Source of the DNA: a virus
Taxonomy: Duplodnaviria; Caudoviricetes
DNA length: 64,000 nucleotides
Direction: 5' to 3' (one strand)
IMG/VR virus record: IMGVR_UViG_3300013121_000023
Coordinates: 96,001-160,000 of that record
The first letter of the stretch is position 1. Each line of letters begins with the position of its first letter. A program made the translations under genes and the position numbers. Below, in pieces: positions 2,149-40,186 of this stretch. Below the pieces are notes generated by a model that saw only the letters and a list, made by a program, of their open reading frames with translations, searched no databases and was not told where the DNA came from.

Positions 2149-3879
2149 ATGTCCAACGTGATCAACGCGAACCTTGTAAGAGACACCAACAACCCGCCAG
2201 ATGCGTGGTGTGTTACTTGGCGACTTCTTCTGTCCCTCATACAAGCAGGCTGGCAAATAAAGTCCTCTAGCAACGGCACTACAAAACTGGGTGTGGGTAC
2301 GGCTAGCCCGACCAACTTCAGCTTGGCTACTTTGCAAAACGTTGGGGCTGGAGGTACTGGGCCATCGATCACAAACAAAGAGTTTGGTGGATTGATGACC
2401 GTAACCGGTGTTTCTGGTCTTGTATCACCAACAGCTACAGACCCTGGCTCAGAGGGTAACTTCATCACCTTTTCTGGCTTTGCGTCGGGCGGTAACAACG
2501 GCACTTTTCAGATAGCCGAGGTACTGAGTGCTACTTCATGCACCATCTGGAATAATTCTGGTGTTTCTGGTGACGCGAATAACGGCAATGTTGGTGTTAC
2601 CTGGCAGGAGAAGAGCTTTAAGACAGCTACCTATACTCCTCCTGGGGCTGTTGTTCAGTGGGCTGTTCTAGAAGGGCCTAGAGTTATCAAGGTTCCTGTG
2701 AACACCACACCATCTTCCAGCTTCATCATCGGTGAGACTGTTTATCAGGGCGCCACCGTAGCTACCCAAAGAAGCGGTACACTAGCCGGCGTTGTTATGA
2801 ACTCTGCTGGTACATCTGGGTGGATGGCCATTGAGCCGCACGATTACGGCACATGGGATACGGTTGACGATATTGTAGGTGTCACTTCTGGCGCTACGCT
2901 GCTGGCAGCAAATATCTCAGCTACACCTGTTGTGTACGCGAATGAAGTGATGTTCGCGAAGTCTTCTTCAAACTATTATCAGGGTAGCTTTTTCTGGTGG
3001 TGCGGTGATAGGTCTGGCGAGAACTCAGACTCACTATCAGGTCGTGCAGGTTCTACAGCCGCTATTCCTCCCGGCTTTACAACCGACACCTTTCCGACAA
3101 ACGCCGCCCTTGGTTATGGCGGCAATGCCGCGCACCAGAATGTCATCAATACTACGGCAGCCAACATGGGCGCGAATGCACAAGTCATGTGTGCAAACGC
3201 TTTGCCCAGGCCGAGGCTCGCAAATGGAAGTGCCAGAACGCCTAGATATGCAGACGGTTCGTTCACCGTTTTGTATCACACGTCGGCCGCTCTTCTTACC
3301 GATGGGTCATACCCAGTGTCTTGGCAGCGCTGTGATGACGTAGAGCCAGGCGACTTGTCGCCGTTCGCCATTCTTACACAGGCGCAAGGAACAACCAGCT
3401 TCGATAAGAAGGCAAACCTGGCGAACACCTACATAGCTGCAACAAGCGGTGTTGTGCATCTAGGTACAAGCGGTTCTGTAAACGCTTGGGTAGCCTTTCC
3501 AGGTAGAGGCTGTGGTGTTGCTGCGAGAGATATTGTGCAGCCGTACGTCGGTCTCGTAGCGCAGACAACATCGGTACACTTCATGGCGCTGAACTCAGGA
3601 GAAGCCTGGAGGCTGGCAGTACACCCAGACACCACACCTCCTATAAGGCCCGAGCGCATTGGTTTGTACAACGATGGCTCAGCTAACCTAACTGGTGGCG
3701 TCACAAGTCAGATAAAGAACAAGAAGGGATCGCCCAGGTGGGTACGGTTGCTGCCTACAGGAAGCCGCATGTCTACGGCAGATAACAAGTTGTGGATATC
3801 AGTGGCTCCTCTTGACTCCACTTACGGCTGCTTGATGTTCGGGCCCTATAACGGTTCTACTACGCCTGTCGCCACATGA
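2149..3879 (+). CDS. virion structural/tail protein
   Basis: 576 aa, G/S/T/A-rich; NNGTFQIAEV motif seen in tail proteins; structural context. Confidence 0.6.
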   Translation: MSNVINANLVRDTNNPPDAWCVTWRLLLSLIQAGWQIKSSSNGTTKLGVGTASPTNFSLATLQNVGAGGTGPSITNKEFGGLMTVTGVSGLVSPTATDPGSEGNFITFSGFASGGNNGTFQIAEVLSATSCTIWNNSGVSGDANNGNVGVTWQEKSFKTATYTPPGAVVQWAVLEGPRVIKVPVNTTPSSSFIIGETVYQGATVATQRSGTLAGVVMNSAGTSGWMAIEPHDYGTWDTVDDIVGVTSGATLLAANISATPVVYANEVMFAKSSSNYYQGSFFWWCGDRSGENSDSLSGRAGSTAAIPPGFTTDTFPTNAALGYGGNAAHQNVINTTAANMGANAQVMCANALPRPRLANGSARTPRYADGSFTVLYHTSAALLTDGSYPVSWQRCDDVEPGDLSPFAILTQAQGTTSFDKKANLANTYIAATSGVVHLGTSGSVNAWVAFPGRGCGVAARDIVQPYVGLVAQTTSVHFMALNSGEAWRLAVHPDTTPPIRPERIGLYNDGSANLTGGVTSQIKNKKGSPRWVRLLPTGSRMSTADNKLWISVAPLDSTYGCLMFGPYNGSTTPVAT

Positions 3880-14366: not shown

Positions 14367-14794
14367 ACATAGTAGCGTTTATTGTGGGCGACACACTAGT
14401 AATAGTTTCAGAAGGTGGGGATCTTTTCAGGGTTGACATGTGTAGCGCTCCTATTAGACAACGTATAGACCAGGTTGATAGCTTGGACGAGTTCGCATCG
14501 ATTATTTATGCAAACTCATTTGAGGCTGCGCCGAGTGCAAACGAGTCAATAGAGCTTATACGGTCTGCCGTGAACAATCCATGTCTACCTATGTGGTTTG
14601 TACAAGATCCTTTTGTGGTGTACGTACTACTGTGCCTGCCTTCGATTACGTGTTTCAATAAGGAGATTATTAAGTCGATAATGATGAATCAGGTAATCAA
14701 CATAACTCCATCTATTATAAGTATACTTCCAGAGTATATACAAATGTACATAATAGATCTAATGCGTACATCTATGCGCCTAAAAGAGGCATAA
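14363..14794 (+). CDS. hypothetical protein (distant APEY family)
   Basis: NNPCLPMWF..LPEYI. Confidence 0.6.
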   Translation: MNIVAFIVGDTLVIVSEGGDLFRVDMCSAPIRQRIDQVDSLDEFASIIYANSFEAAPSANESIELIRSAVNNPCLPMWFVQDPFVVYVLLCLPSITCFNKEIIKSIMMNQVINITPSIISILPEYIQMYIIDLMRTSMRLKEA

Positions 14795-14799
14795 GAACC

Positions 14800-15276
14800 A
14801 TGAATAAAACCGTACTAGAAAGAGCAATGCAGATTCTGGGCAATGCAGATGGTACTGATTTCGTAAGCAGGGTTAATGAAGCGTGTGATTTCATTGCGGA
14901 GAACATTACGGTAGCAACCGACATGTACACTATGGTACATGTATGTACTACGTGTGCATATATCGCTGGCACAATGAAGGTAGGCTACGGTAGCGATACT
15001 TTGGTACGCCTTATACGTAGGGAGTTTCTTAGAGGACTATACAGGATGCCTCAGTTTCCTATATGGTTTCTCGAAGACGAGAAGCTCTGCCTATCTTTCA
15101 TAACTCACATATGTGGGTGTAACTCTGAAGCAGACCACATTGTATCGTTGCTGTGCCTAGATAGAATTGGGGAACGTCCTGTATTTTTGGAAGTGGAGGC
15201 ACCGATTTACGTTAAGGAGTACGTCATAAAAAGAGCATCCATATACGGCTATGATGGGTGCCATATGAACGTTTAG
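14800..15276 (+). CDS. hypothetical protein (distant APEY family)
   Basis: PQFPIWF..EAPIYV. Confidence 0.6.
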   Translation: MNKTVLERAMQILGNADGTDFVSRVNEACDFIAENITVATDMYTMVHVCTTCAYIAGTMKVGYGSDTLVRLIRREFLRGLYRMPQFPIWFLEDEKLCLSFITHICGCNSEADHIVSLLCLDRIGERPVFLEVEAPIYVKEYVIKRASIYGYDGCHMNV

Positions 15277-15285
15277 GAGAACGCT

Positions 15286-15789
15286 ATGGATGTCACGTTT
15301 CATGCATACAAGTTCGGTAGAGAGATACGACAGCTGAAAGAACTCAGCGAAGAAGAAGAGCTTGCCTTTCTACAATCCTCGTTGAAAAACATCAAAGACA
15401 AAATTATAGAAGAGATAGAAAAAGCAACAGATGGTGATAATGCAGTGTTTATTGTAAAATATATGCTTAATGTTTCTCGAATGGCCGTTAATGAGATACG
15501 CCTAAAGTACTTTGATGTCAATCATCCATATAAAAACGCTGTTGCACGTATGGTGCATGAATACACATACGACATAGTAACAAAAGTAGTCACTGATCCA
15601 ACAATTGTTGTTTTGTGCCAAATCCATAACAATGACAGACGAGATATTGTATGGGAAATTACGCTTACTATAGTAAATGCTGGATCTAGCGTAAATGACG
15701 AGTATAGACGTGTTCGTATAGCAGACGTACCCACAAGAACATTGAGGACATACGAACGGGCCTTGTTTAACATACCGGATTGGTTTTTA
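15286..15789 (+). CDS. hypothetical protein, probably ending at TTA
   Basis: AGGAG SD; only in-frame TTA seen is at 15787, 12 codons before TAA. Confidence 0.55.
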
Positions 15790-15888
15790 GTCGTATTGGA
15801 AAAAATATTGCGTATTGGCGCATAAGAGGTTTGGCAGTTACTTTGGGCGTCCAAATGGCCGCCCATGTTTCATCAAAAGGAGTTAGTT

Positions 15889-16326
15889 ATGGGTTTTTAT
15901 GGACGTGGAGATGAAGGTCAGATGGTGGTTAGCGTAACAAAGGATTTTCTTATACAGAAGCTCACTGATAACAAAGAAAACCATATTAAAGAGTACAAAA
16001 AAGCAATAGCTAGTTACCAAGCTAGGGTAGCTAAGGAACTGGCTGCCGTGCTTGCCAAATTGCAGGCCGGTAAACCCATACCGGAAAGCTGGACGTATAA
16101 GCGCCCAGTATCACACGAGCGCGAGTACGCGCTTGCAATAGACATGTTGAGAGCATCGGTAGATACGACGCTCAAAATAACCGGTTCGATGTACGATATG
16201 TACGTCAATGACCGGTGGGACTGGAAATCCACGTTCGACGTAGTAAATGCTACGTATAATGATGGAGACGCCAACTCCGACGCAGGCGCCAACTCCGACG
16301 CAGGCGAGACCATGGTGCGTTCGTGA
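15889..16326 (+). CDS. hypothetical phage protein
   Basis: AAGGAG SD, ATG 15889; N..HI.EY..A..P.SH..EY..AI.ML..YV.D.W.W pattern; 18-nt tandem repeat near 3' end. Confidence 0.7.
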   Translation: MGFYGRGDEGQMVVSVTKDFLIQKLTDNKENHIKEYKKAIASYQARVAKELAAVLAKLQAGKPIPESWTYKRPVSHEREYALAIDMLRASVDTTLKITGSMYDMYVNDRWDWKSTFDVVNATYNDGDANSDAGANSDAGETMVRS

Positions 16327-16332
16327 TTTGTG

Positions 16333-16537
16333 AGACGCCAAGTCTCCATGTCGGAAAACGAGGGATGTGGGCCACAGTTGACCCACAAATCCCAAAGGTG
16401 TCTGTGATGGCTTCGGCCAGAGTGATGGTCGCCGATTGACATCCGTCCATCGGCGATAGATACTGAGGGCCATGTACCACTAGCTGCACCTTGGTCGTGG
16501 CCCTCCTTGTTTCCGGTTCCATCAACCGTTTTTTTTT
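16333..16537 (+). ncRNA. multi-hairpin intergenic RNA / candidate leader
   Basis: several nested inverted repeats (GGGATGTGGG/CCCACAAATCCC, TGGC-TTCG-GCCA, TCGCCGAT/ATCGGCGA, GAGGGCCATG/CGTGGCCCTC) then T-tract. Confidence 0.45.
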
Positions 16538-16554
16538 CGTTCAAGGAGGATGTG

Positions 16555-17073
16555 ATGACGACACGAAAGTTTGGGTTTGGTTCTATCCGTGTGGCTCGTA
16601 ACTTGATTGATATCGCAAGAGTAGATATCAGAAAATACGAGATGAGGATAGCCGCCACGCAAGCGTTGTACGACGTTTGTAAGGAGCTGATCAAGAGCGG
16701 AACTCTTATGGGTATCAACGCCCGTACAGTTTTGCTGCTTATGGCTTATCTCAAAGGTAGGTATTATGACGATGTTGAGAGAAAGCAAAGCGCTACATCA
16801 CGAAAATTTTTGAACGCCATAACCTTCAAGATACTGCATGACATAAAGTCAATCTTCCCAAATAAAGACAGTTTGAAGAACGTAGCCTTCGAACACATCA
16901 AGTTGGACGGCGCTGGTGGTTTTGCTGACTGGGTAGCATCCTGCGGAAACAACGTGGTTTCGGTGCCGCCTGGAACCAAGAAGGCCAGAAAGAAAGCTTA
17001 CGCCGAAAGAAGGGCTGCGCGAGTTAAGAAGGACATGGAAATGACTCATACAGCGAGTGACTTCAAAGCTTAG
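16555..17073 (+). CDS. basic hypothetical protein, in frame with downstream Pth2 across a TAG
   Basis: AAGGAGG SD; LLMAYLKGRYYDDVE motif; ends TAG 17071-17073. Confidence 0.7.
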   Translation: MTTRKFGFGSIRVARNLIDIARVDIRKYEMRIAATQALYDVCKELIKSGTLMGINARTVLLLMAYLKGRYYDDVERKQSATSRKFLNAITFKILHDIKSIFPNKDSLKNVAFEHIKLDGAGGFADWVASCGNNVVSVPPGTKKARKKAYAERRAARVKKDMEMTHTASDFKA

Positions 17074-17382
17074 AGGGTATATGTGGTGGTGTGTGACGAT
17101 CTCCCCAGCAGCTCACAAAAAGCTGTTCAGGGAGCACACGCACTCACCCAGTACATTCTACGTAACTTGCAAGAAGCCCAACAATGGGAAAAGGACTCAA
17201 ACGTCCTTGTGTTTCTGCGGGTGCCCGACGAGCAAGCCCTTATTTCTACAGCTGACAAGCTGAAGATTAATGGCGTTCCGGTGGAGGTGTTTACTGAGCC
17301 CGATTTGGGTAATAGGGCTACAGCACTGGCTGCGTCACCGTCAGCAGCCAAGCACCTCAAAAGATACCCACTGATGAAGTTA
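17074..17382 (+). CDS. pth2: Pth2-like peptidyl-tRNA hydrolase domain ending at TTA
   Basis: RVYVVVCDDL..QKAVQGAHA..W..LVFLRV..E..L..FTEPDLGN..TALA..YPLMK then TTA 17380-17382 right before a terminator. Confidence 0.75.
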
Positions 17383-17384
17383 CG

Positions 17385-17418
17385 AAAGCGGGCCTCGGCC
17401 CGCTTTCTTTTTAACTAC
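17385..17418 (+). terminator. intrinsic terminator
   Basis: GAAAGCGGGCC-TC-GGCCCGCTTTC plus TTTTTAACTA. Confidence 0.8.
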
Positions 17419-17487
17419 CAAACATTATTCATTTACAGACATAAGATGTGTGAGAAAAAGACGTATTCTCAAATATAGGAGAAATCT

Positions 17488-18222
17488 ATGCGCGCTCTTC
17501 CGATGATTGAAGCTGCTCCACATAAAGGCCAACTCTACTGTTCAGTGCGGTATGCAAAAAATTACGTAGCTGATAAAAAGGATTTCTTTATGCGTCTATT
17601 TAGCAAGCTCGGTACGCATACATGCGCGCCAGCAGCACACTGCTACACAGGAGATCCAGTAACCATATCTTCCATGTATTACGCATGCCCATTTTTGACG
17701 CATATCAAACCCACTTACCACAGATTGTCTTATCGGTGCGACCTGTTTGAAGATAAACTATCCACAGTTATCCCCAACAATACGGGAATACCGTTTCACA
17801 TATACGACTTTGAAATGCTTATGAATAGTCTGCAACGTGAAAATCAGATTGCTGTAGGTACTGCCATACAACTTCAAATTGGTCGTTTGTGGCAATGTCG
17901 TCAGCTACAAGAAGATTTGACTATGCATGGACGTTATCTCGGAGAAAGCAGAGATGGTCGCTCATCAGATGGGAATCATACGTCTGGTCTAAATATGATT
18001 CCATTTATAATACGTACCGATGGCGGTCAGTCGTCTGACAAGATTTCACTCAATGCGAAAAAGGAGGTGTTCTTGAAAACGCTACTTAATCCATCACCAC
18101 CAGTGACACAGATATACCCAATGTCGGCAGCACTTGATGAACTGCATACAGCCGACGAGATGAAAACAGCGAGGAGTCGTTATGAAGAGATATTGAAAGA
18201 GTTGCCGAAAGTGGATGAATTA
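17488..18222 (+). CDS. cysteine-cluster protein (YkgJ-like spacing) ending at TTA
   Basis: CPFL..YRC.LF..CRQLQEDL..HG; TTA 18220-18222 removes a 56-nt overlap with the next gene. Confidence 0.55.
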
Positions 18223-18286
18223 TCGTTGAAGACAACTTTTACTCTGTGCTTCTGTAACGTAAGCGCTGTCTCGTTTTTAGAAAGGT

Positions 18287-19426
18287 GTGAACATGTCGTA
18301 TTTCTTCACAAAAGACGATCTCTCGGTATCATACGGAACTAATCTGTATAACTGTTTGTACGATAATGACTTTTGGTCCAGCCTGTTGTCCAGAGTCTCG
18401 CTCAGACTAGGAATGTCTGCTTACGTAGGAAATGTTGGCGACGCTAGATCTAAAATATCGAAAGATAACTTCGATAAGCTAGTGTCTATTCTTAAAGAGA
18501 GTTGTTTTACTAAAGTCTACTCAAGAGGTGATTATCCGTCTTGTGAAGAGGTATATCTATCCGTAGCTGGATACGTGATTGTAGACGTATTCCAGGATAA
18601 CCATACATTCATATATGTAGGAATGTTCGATAGGGAGTCTGTTAGTAAGCTTAAATCCAAAATAGAGCATCTTGTAGAAAAAGTACCTGAAAATAAAGTT
18701 GATAACATACCGCGGGTACACGTCGTAGTTCAAACATCTAGCGGCCTAGACACTAGGGAATTTAATAGTGTCTATTGCAAGCTAGTTCGGGATAACTATG
18801 ACGCGCGCGTTCTTTCGCAGTGGGACAACGTTATTTCTGAGTTCAAGAAATCCGAGCCTGTGGCTAGAATGGCCATACTGAATGGCCCGCCAGGCACCGG
18901 TAAAACACATCTTATAAAGTCCATGCTGTTTGAAGATGGATTGTTTTGCCTTCTTCTGCCAAATGATTTGTTTGTAAACGTGGCCTCACCGGCCTTCCTC
19001 AACTTCTTGATAAATACAGCAGGGAGAATTTCACAGAAGTTGGTTCTTATACTTGAGGACGCCGATAGTCTATTGGAGGAGAGGTCCAACAAAGACGACG
19101 TTAATCCATTGGCGACGCTGCTCAATATGGCAGACGGAATATTGGGTAGAATATTGGATGTTCGTATGATTTTGACTACGAATAGAAAAGATCAAACGTA
19201 TGACGCCGCTACCCTGAGAGCTGGTAGGCTTCTTCACAACATAAACGTAGATAAGTTGGAAAAGAATGGTGTACTCAAAGCCTTTAGAAACATACTGGCT
19301 GACAATGGGATGTCTGAGAATGACATTCATTGCGAACTAGAAAAATTCGCGGCGGATCGCATGTCCATTGCCGATGTATATGCGATGGCGTTTGATGTGC
19401 TCAACAAGAGAAGAGAAGCAAAATGA
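18287..19426 (+). CDS. AAA+ ATPase
   Basis: GPPGTGKT, ILEDAD, TTN, LRAGRL. Confidence 0.9.
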   Translation: MNMSYFFTKDDLSVSYGTNLYNCLYDNDFWSSLLSRVSLRLGMSAYVGNVGDARSKISKDNFDKLVSILKESCFTKVYSRGDYPSCEEVYLSVAGYVIVDVFQDNHTFIYVGMFDRESVSKLKSKIEHLVEKVPENKVDNIPRVHVVVQTSSGLDTREFNSVYCKLVRDNYDARVLSQWDNVISEFKKSEPVARMAILNGPPGTGKTHLIKSMLFEDGLFCLLLPNDLFVNVASPAFLNFLINTAGRISQKLVLILEDADSLLEERSNKDDVNPLATLLNMADGILGRILDVRMILTTNRKDQTYDAATLRAGRLLHNINVDKLEKNGVLKAFRNILADNGMSENDIHCELEKFAADRMSIADVYAMAFDVLNKRREAK

Positions 19427-20505
19427 TAGATCTAGGACCGATCAAAAACTACCTGTCTTTGGTTTGTACGGCAGACGATGCCGGTATCACATACGACAAA
19501 CTATTGAATGCGCTAACAATATCGCAAATGTTGTCGTATAAAGAGAGCTACGTAAGAGTACTGCGCTTGTCAAAGGACATGCTTTCACCTGACGGTAACA
19601 GGGTAATAAGTAAAAGAAACCTAGTAAAGTTGGAGAAGCAACTGTCTGCAAAGTTCTATCTAATGCAGCATGCAGGTAATAGAAAGTATTACGTATCCAA
19701 GGATGGGTGCGGTTTTCTGATGGTAGATGCTGGCGAGTACTTGTCTATAGTGGGGGCCGAACTGTGGTTCAGTAATCTACCAGGTGGGTCAGGTACTGAT
19801 GCAATTAAAAGCGCGCTAAGCCTCAGTAGATTGGAGGCAAGACCTACTGCGTGCGTCCACATGCTAGTAGCGCAGGGCGGTATTTTGACAGCCCGCCCAG
19901 TGTTCATAAAGGAAAGCAAGTTTGTAGTCTCTAACTACTCTTCAACGGTTAGGAACAAATGGGCGCACGCCGTATCAGCTATGTGTAGCGCTGAGCCACC
20001 AGCTAGACTGACTATACTGAATGGTCCGCCAGGAACTGGCAAGACACACTTGATAAAATCACTTCTGAGTAATAAGGATGTCAGTTGTTTGTTCATACCT
20101 AATGGTTTGTTTCCTAAGTTGGCCGATCCATCATTCATAGGTGCAGTCACGGACTTCTGCCGATCTACCGATCTACCTGTGCTTATTATGGAAGATGCCG
20201 ATGATGTATTGAGTTCCAGAGAAGAGGCAGGGACAGTGAACCCGTTGGCTACACTGCTTAATATGACAGATGGAATACTTGGTGTGATGCTGAACATTCG
20301 TGTGATTTTGACCACGAACAGAAAGGACCAATCTCTGGACAAAGCTTTGATCAGAGAGGGTCGTCTTCTAGAGCACATAGAGGTGGGGTATCTTTCTCCG
20401 AGCGAGGCTGTAGAGTGCGCCAAAGGGCTTGGCGCTTCTATAAAGAAGCCTTCAAACAGTATGCCTTTGTGTGATGTGTATGCTGCGATTAAGCAAAAGA
20501 TTTAG
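19423..20505 (+). CDS. AAA+ ATPase (tandem paralogue)
   Basis: GPPGTGKT, IMEDAD, TTN, IREGRL. Confidence 0.9.
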   Translation: MIDLGPIKNYLSLVCTADDAGITYDKLLNALTISQMLSYKESYVRVLRLSKDMLSPDGNRVISKRNLVKLEKQLSAKFYLMQHAGNRKYYVSKDGCGFLMVDAGEYLSIVGAELWFSNLPGGSGTDAIKSALSLSRLEARPTACVHMLVAQGGILTARPVFIKESKFVVSNYSSTVRNKWAHAVSAMCSAEPPARLTILNGPPGTGKTHLIKSLLSNKDVSCLFIPNGLFPKLADPSFIGAVTDFCRSTDLPVLIMEDADDVLSSREEAGTVNPLATLLNMTDGILGVMLNIRVILTTNRKDQSLDKALIREGRLLEHIEVGYLSPSEAVECAKGLGASIKKPSNSMPLCDVYAAIKQKI

Positions 20506-27393: not shown

Positions 27394-27406
27394 GAAAGAT
27401 TGTTTG

Positions 27407-27479
27407 TAGGACGCCCGGGACTTGAACCCGGAACCTGCGGATTAAAAGTCCGCTGCTCTACCTATTGAGCTAGCGACCC
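27407..27479 (-). tRNA. tRNA-Lys(UUU)
   Basis: cloverleaf; GCGGA-CTTTTAA-TCCGC; GGTTCAAGTCC T loop. Confidence 0.9.
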
Positions 27480-27490
27480 GAAGGAGAACC

Positions 27491-27787
27491 ATGACAACAG
27501 CAGCGCGCATGAGGGATTTGGTGGGCGAATATACCAAAAAAGTCATTAGTGAAAATGAGGAACATATAAATGAAAACTTGCTACCGATATTCCTTAAAGA
27601 CTTGTATTCTTGCATAGAATCAGCTGCATCTAAGGGACAGCGCACATACCAACATGCTATAAATCTTACAACCTTGAAGGTGCTGCATTTGGTTGTTCCA
27701 CAATTGAGAGATCGAGGTTATTTGGTAGAGTATATTACTAGTAGTACTACACAGCATCTTATGTACATGAACGTATCTTGGTCATTA
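27491..27787 (+). CDS. hypothetical protein ending at TTA
   Basis: AAGGAG SD; ...NVSWS then TTA 27785-27787 before the shared terminator. Confidence 0.6.
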
Positions 27788-27791
27788 CTTG

Positions 27792-27827
27792 GTAGCTAAA
27801 AAAGAAGAGAGCGAAAGCTCTCTTCTT
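27792..27827. terminator. bidirectional terminator
   Basis: AAAGAAGAGAGC-GAAA-GCTCTCTTCTTT between convergent genes. Confidence 0.8.
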
Positions 27828-28205
27828 TAAATACTTGAATCTATGCGCCTCAATGTATGAGGCCATTACCTCTGCAATGTAGTCGGGGGCAATTCCCCGA
27901 AGTGCATTGCGACTGAGCACTTTTGCGGTACCCTTCCCCCACGGTACCTTCACTGCCTCAATATATGGTTTGCCCTCCCCTTCTGGATGGCGCATTGTTA
28001 GCAAGTGTCTCGCTGCCTGCATCAGCAGGGAGCTTACCTCCTTCGGCTCCTCCAGCCAAAGGATGTGGATTACTGGGTGGTTCAGCACCACCCTCAATTG
28101 CTTTATGGTTTCTTCATTTGCAATATCAGTGTACCTAGTGCCCTCATGTACGAATGTCCTAATGTCCAACAGGGCCTTCCGAAGGCCCTCTATGTTTTCG
28201 TACAT
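27828..28205 (-). CDS. hypothetical protein (APEY family) ending at TTA
   Basis: AGGAGG SD; LNHPVIHILW..IAPDYI; TTA 27830-27828 abuts the terminator. Confidence 0.65.
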
Positions 28206-28318
28206 AGTACCTCCTTTCATATATCTTATGCCATTTTTACGAATAAATTAAGGTACACATAAGTAATAATCGAGGGGCTAAAGAAATGGAAGGATAGCTC
28301 CATCTCTAATAAGTGTTG

Positions 28319-28390
28319 TGCCCCAGAGAGGAATCGAACCTCCTTTAGCCTCCTTGTAAGGGAGGTGCCGGACCAGCTGGCTCCTGGGGC
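28319..28390 (-). tRNA. tRNA-Val(UAC), non-canonical D arm
   Basis: GCCCCAG/CTGGGGC acceptor; CCTCC-CTTACAA-GGAGG; GGTTCGATTCC. Confidence 0.8.
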
Positions 28391-28395
28391 AACTG

Positions 28396-28686
28396 TAACT
28401 TAGATATATCCAAAGAAAGGGAAATCAGCATACCAATGAATTGGTCTCTTCCTTTTTCTACTTCTGTTATGAATTCCGAAACCAATTTGGTTTCGGTCGT
28501 GCCATTTGACTCTATTGTCATGTTCATGTTATGAAAACATGACGATGCTGAATCTGGCCATATTGTGTGTGATACTTTATTAAACCGTTTGTGGAATAGA
28601 TGCCACGCATCTCTAAAGCAGTCTGTTACATAGACCATAACCACCAGTTCTTTTCTTTCTGTGTCCTTTATGAAGTAAACGTTCAT
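28396..28686 (-). CDS. hypothetical protein ending at TTA
   Basis: TTA 28398-28396 ends the ORF 5 nt before tRNA-Val instead of running through it. Confidence 0.6.
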
Positions 28687-28722
28687 TCTTCATTCCTTTC
28701 ATTTTTACTCATATAGTAACAG

Positions 28723-28796
28723 TGGGACCACTCGGATTCGAACCGAGAACATCCCGGTTATGAGCCGGGGGCTCTGACCGATTGAGCTATAGTCCC
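28723..28796 (-). tRNA. tRNA-CAU (Ile2-like or elongator Met)
   Basis: CCCGG-CTCATAA-CCGGG; paired G1-C72 so not initiator. Confidence 0.85.
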
Positions 28797-28875
28797 AAAC
28801 AAGCCGTTTTTAAATAAACGGCAAGGATTTATTGCATGACGTGGCCTCAGCCCGCCTTATCTATGCAATACATCG

Positions 28876-28947
28876 AGCCCACTATGGGATTTGAACCCAT
28901 GACCTACGGTTTACAAAACCGTTGCTCTACCACTGAGCTATGTGGGC
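28876..28947 (-). tRNA. tRNA-Thr(UGU)
   Basis: ACGGT-TTTGTAA-ACCGT. Confidence 0.9.
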
Positions 28948-28950
28948 AGG

Positions 28951-29060
28951 AGCGACAGGCCCGAGTCGAACGGGCGACCAACGGAAAACCGCTGCTCTAC
29001 GGGGCCATCACCAGACAGAACGTTACTTGTCTGGCTTGTGACCTACTGAGCTACTGTCGC
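28951..29060 (-). ncRNA. tRNA-like RNA with D-loop insertion and no anticodon loop
   Basis: GCGACAG/CTGTCGC acceptor, intact T arm, ~45-nt hairpin in D loop, anticodon arm reduced to GCGG-TTTT-CCGT. Confidence 0.7.
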
Positions 29061-29083
29061 AAAAAAGGCTTATATAGCCTTTG

Positions 29084-29155
29084 TGGATCGTCTAGGAATT
29101 GAACCTAGGCACAGCGCTTATAAGACGCCGCAGGGCAACCAGCCCGTCACGATCC
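29084..29155 (-). tRNA. tRNA-Ile(UAU), non-canonical D arm
   Basis: GGATCGT/ACGATCC; GGCGT-CTTATAA-GCGCT; GGTTCAATTCC. Confidence 0.8.
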
Positions 29156-29234
29156 ATAAGAGGTACACCGGAGACCCGATGAAGCCTTCCGCCAGCATGG
29201 TAGGAAGAAGGAGTGTCACCACGATGTACCTCGG

Positions 29235-29306
29235 CATCCCTGACAGGATTTGAACCTGTGACCCGGAGATTAGAAATCTCCTGCTCTTCCGCTGAGCTAC
29301 AGGGAC
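29235..29306 (-). tRNA. tRNA-Arg(UCU)
   Basis: GGAGA-TTTCTAA-TCTCC. Confidence 0.9.
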
Positions 29307-29544
29307 ATCTACGCCTTCACTCATATTTCTTATTGCGCTATTTATTTGATTTTTTCTTACGGTAGCTAAAAATAGATAGGGTTTGCTGATATAGGAGTAA
29401 GTTGGCCCGCCGTCATGATCGCCGTTATACCGGATGGAGTCTGGAGTACAGCTACTATCAACCGGGCCGAGAAGATAGATTTACAACGAACTGGTGTGGT
29501 TCGTATGACTAACGGTCTTTCGGGGCGCCTCATCAAGACCGCTG

Positions 29545-29623
29545 TGCTCTTGGCAGGAGTCGAACCTGCAAATAATAAAGCCGCTTTTGAAACGGCCGCG
29601 TCTGCCTATTTCGCCACAAGAGC
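29545..29623 (-). tRNA. tRNA-Leu(CAA), short variable region
   Basis: GCCGT-TTCAAAA-GCGGC; Leu-type GGCGAAATAGGCAGACGC D arm. Confidence 0.85.
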
Positions 29624-29682
29624 TTTGGCCGTCACCCCCCACACCAACTACTAGAGCTGTGTGGGGGGGGGGTTTCGTAGGT

Positions 29683-29781
29683 AGACCCCGAGTTAGAAAG
29701 CCGTTCTGCATCTTCAGTATTCGGCGAAGAAAAAGAGAGTTGCACTCTTTTCGGGCGTGTATGGCTTTCTTGGTGGGGTCT
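29683..29781 (-). ncRNA. Y RNA-like element 2 (T-arm containing)
   Basis: terminal stem AGACCCC/GGGGTCT and AGAAAGCC/GGCTTTCT; internal AAGAG-TGCAACT-CTCTT; shares motifs with 29871-30016. Confidence 0.5.
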
Positions 29782-29865
29782 TGGAAAGCGAAGAGGAATT
29801 GAACCTCTTATCTCCATTTCGGTAGTTGGCCTAGATGGATGGTTTTTGCCTTTAACCTACGCTTC
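29782..29865 (-). ncRNA. tRNA-like RNA with 17-nt anticodon loop
   Basis: D stem GGTT/AACC; TCCAT-(17 nt)-ATGGA; AGAGG-TTCAATT-CCTCT; ends CCA. Confidence 0.6.
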
Positions 29866-29870
29866 ATAAT

Positions 29871-30016
29871 GAGACCCGAGTTACTGCACCATTGTCCTTG
29901 TTAGGACTGGTTTTGGTTACCAGTTGCCGACCACCGGCACCTACCCCTTATACGGGGTAGCTAGGATTCGAACCTAGTTTTTGGGGTTGCGTGTAGGATG
30001 CAGTTGTTTGGGTCTC
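29871..30016 (-). ncRNA. circularly permuted tRNA-like RNA inside a long closing stem (Y RNA-like)
   Basis: order T arm, closed acceptor hairpin, D arm, anticodon arm; ends paired GAGACCC/GGGTCTC and ACTGCA/TGCAGT. Confidence 0.7.
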
Positions 30017-30018
30017 GG

Positions 30019-30100
30019 TGCTGAGAGAGGGACTCGAACCCTCACGGTTTTACCCGCCGGTACCTAAAACCGGGGCGTCTACCTATTCCGCCACCTCAGC
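30019..30100 (-). tRNA. tRNA-Leu(UAG)
   Basis: CCGGT-TTTAGGT-ACCGG; long variable arm. Confidence 0.9.
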
Positions 30101-30174
30101 AAGAAAGGGTGTAAGTAACGTGTGTAGGGACGAACGGCGAAGAACATCCAAGTACTCACGTTAAGCACACCCTG

Positions 30175-30253
30175 TGGGGTAGATAGGGATCGCACCTATC
30201 AGCTCTGGGCAGCGGTTTTACAGACCGCCTGAAGCACTAGCTTCGTCTACCCC
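30175..30253 (-). tRNA. tRNA-Tyr(GUA), atypical D and T loops
   Basis: GGGGTAG/CTACCCC; GCGGT-CTGTAAA-ACCGC; T loop TGCGATC. Confidence 0.75.
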
Positions 30254-39394: not shown

Positions 39395-39413
39395 CTTTTT
39401 AGCGTTTCGTTAG

Positions 39414-39485
39414 CGCGGGTAACGGGACTTGAACCCGTACATAAGGATTTAGAATCCTATGCTCTACCAGTTGAGCTATACCCAC
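39414..39485 (-). tRNA. amber suppressor tRNA (anticodon CUA)
   Basis: GTGGGTA/TACCCGC; TAGCTCAACTGGTAGAGCA; TAGGA-TTCTAAA-TCCTT; GGTTCAAGTCC. Confidence 0.85.
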
Positions 39486-39520: not shown

Positions 39521-40186
39521 CTACATTTTTGGCACCGAGAAGCCTTTATCTCCTTGATACTTTCCGCCCTTGGCTGCATACGAAATTAGGGGCGCGACAG
39601 CAGTTCTGAAGAATAGAACCTGGCACACTCCTTCACCTATATACAGTTTGGCAGGTACGGGGTTGGCGTTCTGAATTTCCAACGTCAGTCTACCGTGCCA
39701 TCCTGGTTCTATTGGGGTGATAAGCTGATTCACGCCGCACCTAGCGTACGTAGACTTGCCTATGCACAGCCCCATTATATTTTCTGGCATTCGGAAGTAT
39801 TCCAGTGTTTCACCGAATACAGTGGAGTTGCCAGGTATCCATACGTAAGAACCAGTAGGCCCTTCTTTTGGTAGTAGCTGCTGAAGTGGTGCGCCACCGT
39901 TTTTAGGGTCTACGTGCGTAGAGTCTGGCGTCCTAACGAACCACTTGTCCCCAGCAGTTATATCGTAGCCAACCGTAGATATACCACGGCTTATTATCTT
40001 CACATTGGTGAGTACGCCGTTGATATCCATTGGTTCCTGACGTACTGACTTCTTTAGATACGGAAAGACTATGGAGTTTTCTTCTTTGTCTAGAAGCTTT
40101 ATGATTTCTCCATCAGTCAAGAGGCCAGATGGTTCACTACCGGTAAGGTGATTAAGCATGCGCTCAAAATCGTTGTCGTTCGCCAT
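39521..40186 (-). CDS. dcd: dCTP deaminase
   Basis: IIS.G.S..GYD, GKSTYARCG, TPIEPGWHG.LTLEI, GKYQ. Confidence 0.9.
   Translation of the reverse strand: MANDNDFERMLNHLTGSEPSGLLTDGEIIKLLDKEENSIVFPYLKKSVRQEPMDINGVLTNVKIISRGISTVGYDITAGDKWFVRTPDSTHVDPKNGGAPLQQLLPKEGPTGSYVWIPGNSTVFGETLEYFRMPENIMGLCIGKSTYARCGVNQLITPIEPGWHGRLTLEIQNANPVPAKLYIGEGVCQVLFFRTAVAPLISYAAKGGKYQGDKGFSVPKM

Follow-up and report, generated by a model that had tools for sequence, protein, structure and literature searches.

The stretch of 64,000 nucleotides analysed here (the window) is part (bases 96001-160000) of a phage record of 177,132 bp, which is complete and has direct terminal repeats. On the plus strand of the window, a putative operon spanning 16436-17412 comprises a promoter-like site, a leader, an open reading frame (ORF) of 172 amino acids (aa), a TAG codon, a domain that resembles the hydrolase Pth2, and a terminator. 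According to the best-supported reading of this locus, the output of the hydrolase would depend on suppression of the UAG codon, as an earlier note on this DNA had proposed. This reading is based on the recurrence of TAG at the same position in homologous loci and on the linkage of these loci to genes for a tRNA with the anticodon CUA, tRNA(CUA). From sequence comparisons we also consider it probable that UAG readthrough fuses the product of the 172-aa ORF (the N-domain) to the Pth2-like domain.

The 172-aa ORF ends with AAA GCT TAG, the TAG occupying 17071-17073, and the same frame continues with AGG GTA TAT GTG GTG GTG TGT GAC GAT CTC, in which the first GTG is at 17083. The base that follows the TAG is A. 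The codons AGG, GTA and TAT are not start codons, and there is no ATG, GTG or TTG from the TAG to the end of R-V-Y. The TAG serves both as the stop of the N-domain ORF and as the in-frame entry to the Pth2-like domain (17074-17379, 102 aa). As the earlier note had stated, the first strand of this domain starts directly behind the TAG: positions 3-106 of the 115 in PF01981 match residues 2-96 after the TAG (E 2.3e-8, 34.7 bits, cut-off 23), and strand 1 of an AlphaFold2 model is V-Y-V-V-V-C, residues 2-7 after the TAG. The pLDDT of this model is 88 overall and 96-99 over the Pth2-like domain. A Foldseek search with the model returned archaeal Pth2 structures and human Bit1 (2zv3, 1q7s, 3erj, 1wn2, 1xty; E 3e-7 to 2e-5, TM 0.70-0.79), the top match being Pth2 of M. 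jannaschii (2zv3, E 2.9e-7, TM 0.78); the family profile also detected 2zv3 among the Pth2 chains of the PDB, with an E value of 6.5e-12. The codon score of the domain is positive, and the strain differences inside it are mostly synonymous. Residues Q19, H22, D77 and T83 are invariant in the subfamily, and the D and the T align with the D and the L-T-A of 2zv3.

A full HMMER scan identified 885 homologues, mostly stand-alone proteins of 95-120 aa. The alignment of 40 of them revealed the N-terminal consensus x-x-K-L-Y-x-V-V-R-x-D-L, with which the R-V-Y of the window agrees; we estimate that three random codons under uniform usage would fit [KR][LVIMF][YF] in about 0.2% of the cases. A start at GTG 17083-17085, the choice of the gene callers, drops R-V-Y and gives 99 aa up to the TTA discussed below or 131 aa up to the TAG at 17476. 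The prediction that this start would cost the protein its typical Tyr was therefore borne out, and so was the presence of a Shine-Dalgarno sequence in front of it. This sequence, AGAGGG at 17072-17077, lies 5 nucleotides before the GTG, a good spacing, and a clipped 99-aa product from this second start is possible. The TAG and its junction were invariant in six near-identical strains (L002-L007) and in four further sequencing runs, and a contig from an RNA library spans the TAG. The RNA evidence consists of the assembled contigs of this single library, which carry no transcript ends, strand or expression level and in which coverage gaps have no meaning.

A pattern search independent of gene calls yielded 65 IMG/VR loci, which together with L008, L019, L021 and Mycobacterium phage Cane17 represent 60 distinct sequences. 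In 28 of the 60, no canonical start codon separates the nearest in-frame stop on the upstream side from the K of K-L-Y, and the stop in these start-less loci was TAG in 26 cases, TGA in one and TAA in one (binomial p 7e-11 against one third), while the 32 start-bearing loci had TAG in 13, TGA in 10 and TAA in 9 (Fisher 2.6e-5); since the loci share ancestry, these p-values and the one that follows overstate independence and significance, which has to be set against our reading. A tRNA(CUA) gene was found within 2.5 kb of 24 of the 28 start-less loci versus 10 of the other 32 (Fisher p 2.4e-5), almost always downstream and on the same strand. These counts show that the in-frame stop at the junction, whose conservation in relatives had been put forward as a check, is indeed conserved. 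At least 16 of the gated loci either lack an ATG, GTG or TTG downstream of the TAG or have their first one 9-79 codons into the domain, so that readthrough would be the sole route to the whole domain there. The gated loci span 30-50% protein identity and include GC-rich contigs of actinobacterial type, jumbo phages and Cane17.

According to the classical literature on suppression, a 3′ purine favours amber suppression. The base after the gate TAG is a purine in 24 of the 26 relatives, a bias that is confounded by the conserved Ile or Val at this place, whereas ordinary TAG ends in the genome of the window exhibit no preference.

The closest diverged relative, P0008 (locus L008, on a 168-kb contig, 50% identity), illustrates the arrangement. 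Its gene call starts at the GTG of the same position, but the in-frame sequence upstream reads ATG ACG TAG CCA CAC CGA GAT AAG CTG TAC GTG, that is, M-T-stop-P-H-R-D-K-L-Y; a good Shine-Dalgarno sequence precedes the ATG, and a tRNA(CUA) gene begins 30 nucleotides after the Pth2-like gene. We also inspected the DNA of the other N-terminally clipped homologues, except P0062. An in-frame TAG was found 1-6 codons before [KR]-L-[YF] in L010, L019, L020 and L021-23, and tRNA(CUA) genes adjoin the Pth2-like gene in L019 and L021-23. In Cane17 (L024, a Bixzunavirus), the sequence at 2435-2480 consists of TTGACA, 17 nucleotides, TACCGT, 6 nucleotides and ATG TAG GTG, ahead of gene 148, which is annotated as 'peptidyl tRNA hydrolase'; the first tRNA of the downstream array (3101-3173), annotated as 'tRNA-OTHER', has the anticodon CUA. 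The arrangement also has a bearing on annotation: gene callers systematically clip proteins of this kind or start them at spurious GTGs.

Other stops were also observed at this place. The 675-kb phage of L055 carries a TAA gate (M-K-E-T-TAA-I-Y-N-R-L-Y), and no suppressor tRNA was found within 2.5 kb of it; in L045, a TGA precedes a start-less K-L-Y. Near the gene, a tRNA with the anticodon UUA is present in L041 and in L091, and two with UCA are present in L073. The GC-rich loci L019 (a 56-kb ENA contig, 3001-3734) and L010 share the pattern M-P-H-[TR]-TAG-...-R-L-[YF] and an overlapping second gene of 102-103 aa. Their neighbours are MerR, aldo-keto reductase and MDMPI_N genes, and L019 has a tRNA(CUA); modules of this type may also reside in actinobacterial chromosomes or prophages.

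An alternative is that the window contains two ordinary adjoining genes, in which case TAG 17071 is a plain stop, the Pth2-like gene starts at GTG 17083, and the shared frame and R-V-Y are ancestral leftovers. The choice of the gene callers and the good spacing of the Shine-Dalgarno sequence agree with this explanation, and a TAG followed by a Shine-Dalgarno sequence and a start is the usual junction in this genome, in which TAG is a common and unprotected stop. A few homologues (P0022, P0051, P0064) carry an M at or next to the Tyr position. In addition, the shared frame is not rare here: six successive genes at 14674-18342 (+) lie in one frame, separated by single stops (TAG, TAA, TGA, TAG and TAG), so that a frame match with a neighbour is by itself weak evidence in this region. 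However, R-V-Y fits a family-wide motif and forms part of strand 1, and a start-less N-terminus preceded by TAG occurs in 26 further distinct loci, at identities down to 35-50%, over which relic codons would not survive. Most of those loci have no nearby start, and the three that possess a long in-frame ORF upstream all use TAG and the same frame. Two independent genes are, in our opinion, an unlikely explanation.

The N-domain ORF (16555-17070) starts at ATG 16555 behind an AAGGAGG Shine-Dalgarno sequence, in the same frame as the Pth2-like domain; it has a codon score of +0.25, contains no in-frame TTA and belongs to no Pfam family. A clear homologue of the 172-aa protein is encoded upstream in L008 (BLASTP E 7e-11), and a profile search for its relatives returned five proteins. 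Single-ORF proteins of 209-237 aa, in which an N-terminal helical domain is joined to a Pth2-like domain, are common, and the Pth2-like domain is also C-terminal in ORF364 of XacN1 and in the RAS14 homologue of this ORF, which are proteins of 262-280 aa. When a profile of the window, L008 and L021 sequences was compared by hhalign with the fusion alignment A2, a match of 88% probability (E 3.4e-6) was obtained over 37 columns at the same positions. This three-sequence profile leaves out L027, and BLASTP of the N-domain against the N-terminal ORF of L027 found nothing. In view of this probable homology to the single-ORF fusions, the product of readthrough in the window would have a two-domain architecture that also occurs naturally. 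The one-frame layout of N-terminal ORF, TAG and Pth2-like domain recurs in L021/L075 (a 122-aa ORF, TAG, G-K-L-Y) and in L027 (a 164-aa ORF, TAG, G-A-S-M-L-D-K-L-Y), with a tRNA(CUA) gene about 40 nucleotides after the gene in both cases. A long upstream in-frame ORF was seen only in these loci and in the window, always with TAG.

The claim that the Pth2 domain is fused behind an amber codon consequently stands in part: it is supported by these two layouts and by the single-ORF fusions, but most gated relatives have their own ATG and only 1-3 codons ahead of the TAG. An upstream segment of another kind was seen in L059 (1724-2488), where a second segment, K-L-V-V-I-T-R-R-D-L...Q-A-V-Q-A-A, stands at the beginning of the frame that precedes the gated gene. 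This frame extends over 255 codons with no stop; it may be a duplicated or decayed start of a Pth2-like gene fused to another domain.

The short leaders of the relatives raise the possibility of readthrough without fusion. The Pth2-like gene would have its own start at ATG 17041, which has AAGGA 7 nucleotides upstream and would give M-T-H-T-A-S-D-F-K-A-X-R-V-Y...; this would be an extended form of the leaders of 2-4 codons seen in the relatives, which often begin with M-T or M-[PT]-H (L008, L010, L019, L086). All strains retain ATG 17041, whereas some have ACG in place of ATG 17035. Furthermore, the N-domain and the Pth2-like domain of L008 are encoded by separate genes, between which lies a gene in another frame for a different protein, so that the conserved feature is the amber gate and not the fusion. 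Nevertheless, ribosomes translating the 172-aa ORF would meet the same UAG in the same frame and the fusion would form anyway upon suppression; the natural fusions and the two other in-frame loci also argue for a functional fusion. We consider an internal start without fusion rather improbable.

At its 3′ end, the Pth2-like frame has no standard stop before the terminator. Under table 11 it runs from the TTA at 17380-17382 through a strong terminator hairpin (17384-17407) to TAG 17476-78. Nevertheless, we conclude that the ORF probably ends at the TTA, because this codon is nearly absent inside the genes of this genome: only 6 in-frame TTAs were found in 27,050 interior codons of long ORFs, versus 494 TTG and 572 CTA, and off-frame TTA occurs at 9-17 per 1000. 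The remaining in-frame TTAs cluster at the ends of ORFs (e.g. 17380-17382, 18220 and 18277 of the window). The Leu tRNAs of the phage read UUG and CUN, and none has the anticodon UAA. In all frames, the codon score of the segment 17380-17475 is negative; the segment is modelled as disordered, and the homologues end at the alignment column of 17379. The end at 17382 given by the earlier note is thus defensible. One nucleotide after the TTA begins the stem of an intrinsic terminator (17384-17412, +) with 10 bp, of which 7 are G-C pairs, a tetraloop and a T-run. Differences among strains were observed in this part of the locus (17380-17790). L007 has a 1-nucleotide deletion that shifts the frame in the tail, and its terminator loop is TTCG instead of CTCG on a preserved stem; L003 has a deletion that begins directly behind TTA-C and extends across the terminator into the following gene, whose first part is lost.

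The missing stop, together with the existence of single-ORF fusions, could also be taken as a sign that a nonsense mutation split an ancestral fusion and that the hydrolase half is no longer made. This is very improbable given that the domain is intact, has a positive codon score, mostly synonymous strain differences and a confident fold, that the TAG is found at the same position in many lineages, and that the TTA explains the missing stop.

As had been claimed, the genome supplies a CUA tRNA, which is the candidate suppressor. The tRNA(CUA) gene (39413-39485, minus strand; Rfam tRNA 67.5 bits) encodes an elongator-type tRNA with a short variable arm and a G1-C72 pair, and it is the sole suppressor among the 10 tRNAs of the genome. 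Its nearest relative is the tRNA(CUA) located directly after the Pth2-like gene of L008 (71% identity), and the tRNA(CUA) genes of the module belong to several unrelated acceptor types. The gene sits behind a dCTP-deaminase-like gene, which ends in TAG AAA TAA (39521-39530, minus strand), a tandem stop two codons apart, and a hairpin lies between the two genes. The pyrrolysine identity reported for this tRNA is just the label that ARAGORN gives to a CUA anticodon, and it was discarded. Initiation at UAG by an initiator-like tRNA(CUA) was rejected as well, because the tRNA combines a G1-C72 pair with an anticodon stem that lacks three consecutive G-C pairs, and because the TAG is preceded by ATG leaders that have a Shine-Dalgarno sequence or a -10 box.

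That TAG is a sense codon throughout this genome (code 15), the junction being just one of many in-frame TAGs, is scarcely credible: the phage does have a tRNA(CUA), and pairs of long ORFs in the same frame are split by a single TAG in 19 cases versus TAA in 11 and TGA in 8, but the window is densely coding under table 11, TAG ends 58 of the 232 confident ORFs, the other same-frame TAG junctions have a Shine-Dalgarno sequence and an ATG right behind, a scan of the genome for other genes with an early TAG and no start found none convincing, and the long ORFs are contiguous, although interior TAG is absent from them by construction. We conclude that the genome is not TAG-recoded. With no other amber-gated gene found, the tRNA(CUA) has one visible target.

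Several observations weigh against a hydrolase whose supply is set by UAG suppression. The tRNA(CUA) gene of the window lies 22 kb from the operon, on the opposite strand, and is not adjacent to it. GTG 17083 has a well-spaced Shine-Dalgarno sequence, and only three loci, the window included, have one before the first start after the gate. The homology between the N-domain and the fusions covers 37 columns, and with the single sequence alone hhalign gave a non-significant 3%; the separate genes of L008 also speak against the fusion. The G-K motif of Pth2 is absent, and the substrate is therefore uncertain. Finally, back-up stops after TAG ends are no nearer than those after TAA or TGA (median 13 versus 9-10 codons). 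With its TAG ends unprotected, the phage should find a strong constitutive suppressor costly, and this lack of protection against readthrough points to suppression that is weak, brief or limited by context; within the genome itself, it provides the chief argument against a strong switch.

A second UAG was found upstream. A promoter-like site, TTGACA-17-GATACT (16436-16464, +), matches the consensus at 10 of 12 positions, a match of consensus only, as sites of this type are not enriched over shuffled sequences. Since it ends 7 nucleotides before ATG 16472, the transcript may be leaderless or nearly so. The same layout of -10 box, 6 nucleotides and ATG is present in L010, L019 and Cane17. In the 230-nucleotide spacer before ATG 16555, this ATG opens a leader ORF (16472-16555) that reads ATG TAC CAC TAG CTG CAC CTT GGT CGT GGC CCT CCT, that is, M-Y-H-TAG-L-H-L-G-R-G-P-P, with the TAG at 16481-83 and R-G-P-P at 16496-16507; it ends in a TGA that overlaps ATG 16555 (TGATG). 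The R-G-P-P sequence is reached only by readthrough of the leader UAG. Of 61 loci, 14 had the pattern M-x(0-6)-TAG-x-R[AG]PP on the strand of the module, whereas the controls with TAA, with TGA and on the opposite strand gave one each. In published assays, no other RAPP-like arrest motif was as strong as RGPP (PMC12992588; PMC10951233).

The RNA of this leader is predicted to form a helix (16502-16549) in which CCUCCUUG (16502-09), containing the Pro-Pro codons, pairs with CAAGGAGG (16542-49), containing the Shine-Dalgarno sequence of the 172-aa ORF; the minimum free energy (MFE) of the predicted fold is -27.8 kcal/mol (z -2.2). Within the helix lie a 5-bp hairpin (16514-28) and then a run of nine T (16529-37), which together resemble a terminator. 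MFE predictions gave the same two-helix layout of Pro-Pro codons and Shine-Dalgarno sequence, with different letters, in L008 and L075, and not in L027.

From these elements, we propose that 16436-17412 is a single operon gated twice by UAG, and that the tRNA(CUA) of the phage would open both gates. Translation of the leader would stop at UAG codon 4 unless this codon is suppressed; upon suppression, the ribosome would reach R-G-P-P and stall on the CCU-CCU codons, which would free the Shine-Dalgarno sequence of the 172-aa ORF and may also block the small hairpin and the U9 run. At UAG 17071, the comparison of loci indicates that suppression would produce a 275-aa protein composed of the N-domain and the Pth2-like domain and ending at TTA 17380; with no suppression, the N-domain alone would be made, perhaps with a little of the clipped domain from GTG 17083. 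The Pth2-like enzyme would act on tRNA esters, probably on peptidyl-tRNA released when termination is disturbed, and its supply would thereby be tied to the strength of UAG readthrough. UAG would be readable as sense and UUA is nearly absent inside genes and found at gene ends, from which one could go further and suppose that the two-domain readthrough protein releases peptides from ribosomes waiting at unreadable codons, its supply being set by the two-gate UAG sensor; we regard this extension as a long shot.

The phage was found in metagenomes of activated sludge, digesters and soil, from about ten studies. Downstream of the operon, two adjoining paralogous AAA ATPase genes (379 and 360 aa) occupy 18287-20505 (+). 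A cluster of nine tRNA genes lies at 27406-30253 on the minus strand, and its tRNAs serve mostly codons that end in A (Lys UUU, Val UAC, Thr UGU, Ile UAU, Arg UCU, Leu UAG); ATA is frequent in the long ORFs of the phage (32 per 1000 codons). A blastn search of 15800-18400 against the phage collection gave no match, viral contigs searched with a single Pth2 or N-domain protein gave no confirmed match, nothing was found in GTDB genomes searched with P0132 or P0089, and a word-based protein search returned only the cluster of the window itself.

Full-text literature searches on suppressor tRNAs, PTH2 and phage recoding retrieved no description of an amber-gated hydrolase module. Large phages with the standard code commonly encode suppressor tRNAs, the targets of which have been an open question; the authors of the XacN1 study sought targets of its CUA tRNAs and found none (PMC5852040). 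The module described here offers one, the partner gene of the tRNA. If the proposal is correct, an early UAG, an RGPP stalling leader and a hydrolase that acts at the tRNA end would together make up a natural gene switch that takes the decoding state of a stop codon as its input. The cultured carriers, Mycobacterium phage Cane17 and its Bixzunavirus relatives, provide a tractable experimental model for the module.

Among known systems, recoded phages in which TAG specifies Gln (code 15; crAss-like, Lak and others) are similar in that a phage tRNA(CUA) makes genes with in-frame TAG dependent on suppression, for which a role in timing or regulation has been suggested (bioRxiv 10.1101/2021.08.26.457843, PMC9523058); the main survey of recoding does not mention any hydrolase. 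In those phages, however, dozens of late and lysis genes carry TAG, which has been given up as a stop, whereas in the phage of the window TAG ends about a quarter of the genes, a single operon with two TAGs would be gated, and the target is a translation-related enzyme linked to the tRNA. The leader resembles the arrest peptides with RAPP or RGPP motifs (ApdA, ApdP, ApcA; RAGP in SecM) in having a small upstream ORF with R-G-P-P and a putative stall site that overlaps a helix predicted to hide a Shine-Dalgarno sequence. The known peptides are monitors of protein export whose N-terminal sensor parts are long (PMC7897499, PMC10951233, PMC12992588); in the window, the motif stands 8 residues after the UAG at codon 4, and the input of the putative arrest would be the readthrough of this stop codon.

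By analogy, the scheme also recalls prfB, which encodes RF2, where an early in-frame stop (UGA) makes synthesis report the efficiency with which that stop is read. prfB differs in that it uses a +1 frameshift and senses its own product, while in the window the frame would be unchanged, a suppressor tRNA would be needed, and the product is not a release factor. With archaeal and eukaryotic Pth2 (MJ0051 2zv3, AF2095, PH1539, Bit1/PTRH2), the domain shares the fold, the Pfam family and the H-A, D and T positions. Unlike these enzymes, the putative enzyme of the window is shorter (about 100 aa), has P-G-x-Q in place of G-K and a shortened loop before L-T-A, and is phage-borne and linked to tRNA(CUA). 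Finally, the A1 coat protein of Q-beta and Gag-Pol of murine leukemia virus (MuLV) are minor products that arise when ribosomes pass the leaky stop of an ORF and thereby add a further domain at the C-terminus. Both of these viruses rely on near-cognate host tRNAs and on RNA context, whereas the genome of the window encodes a dedicated cognate suppressor tRNA.

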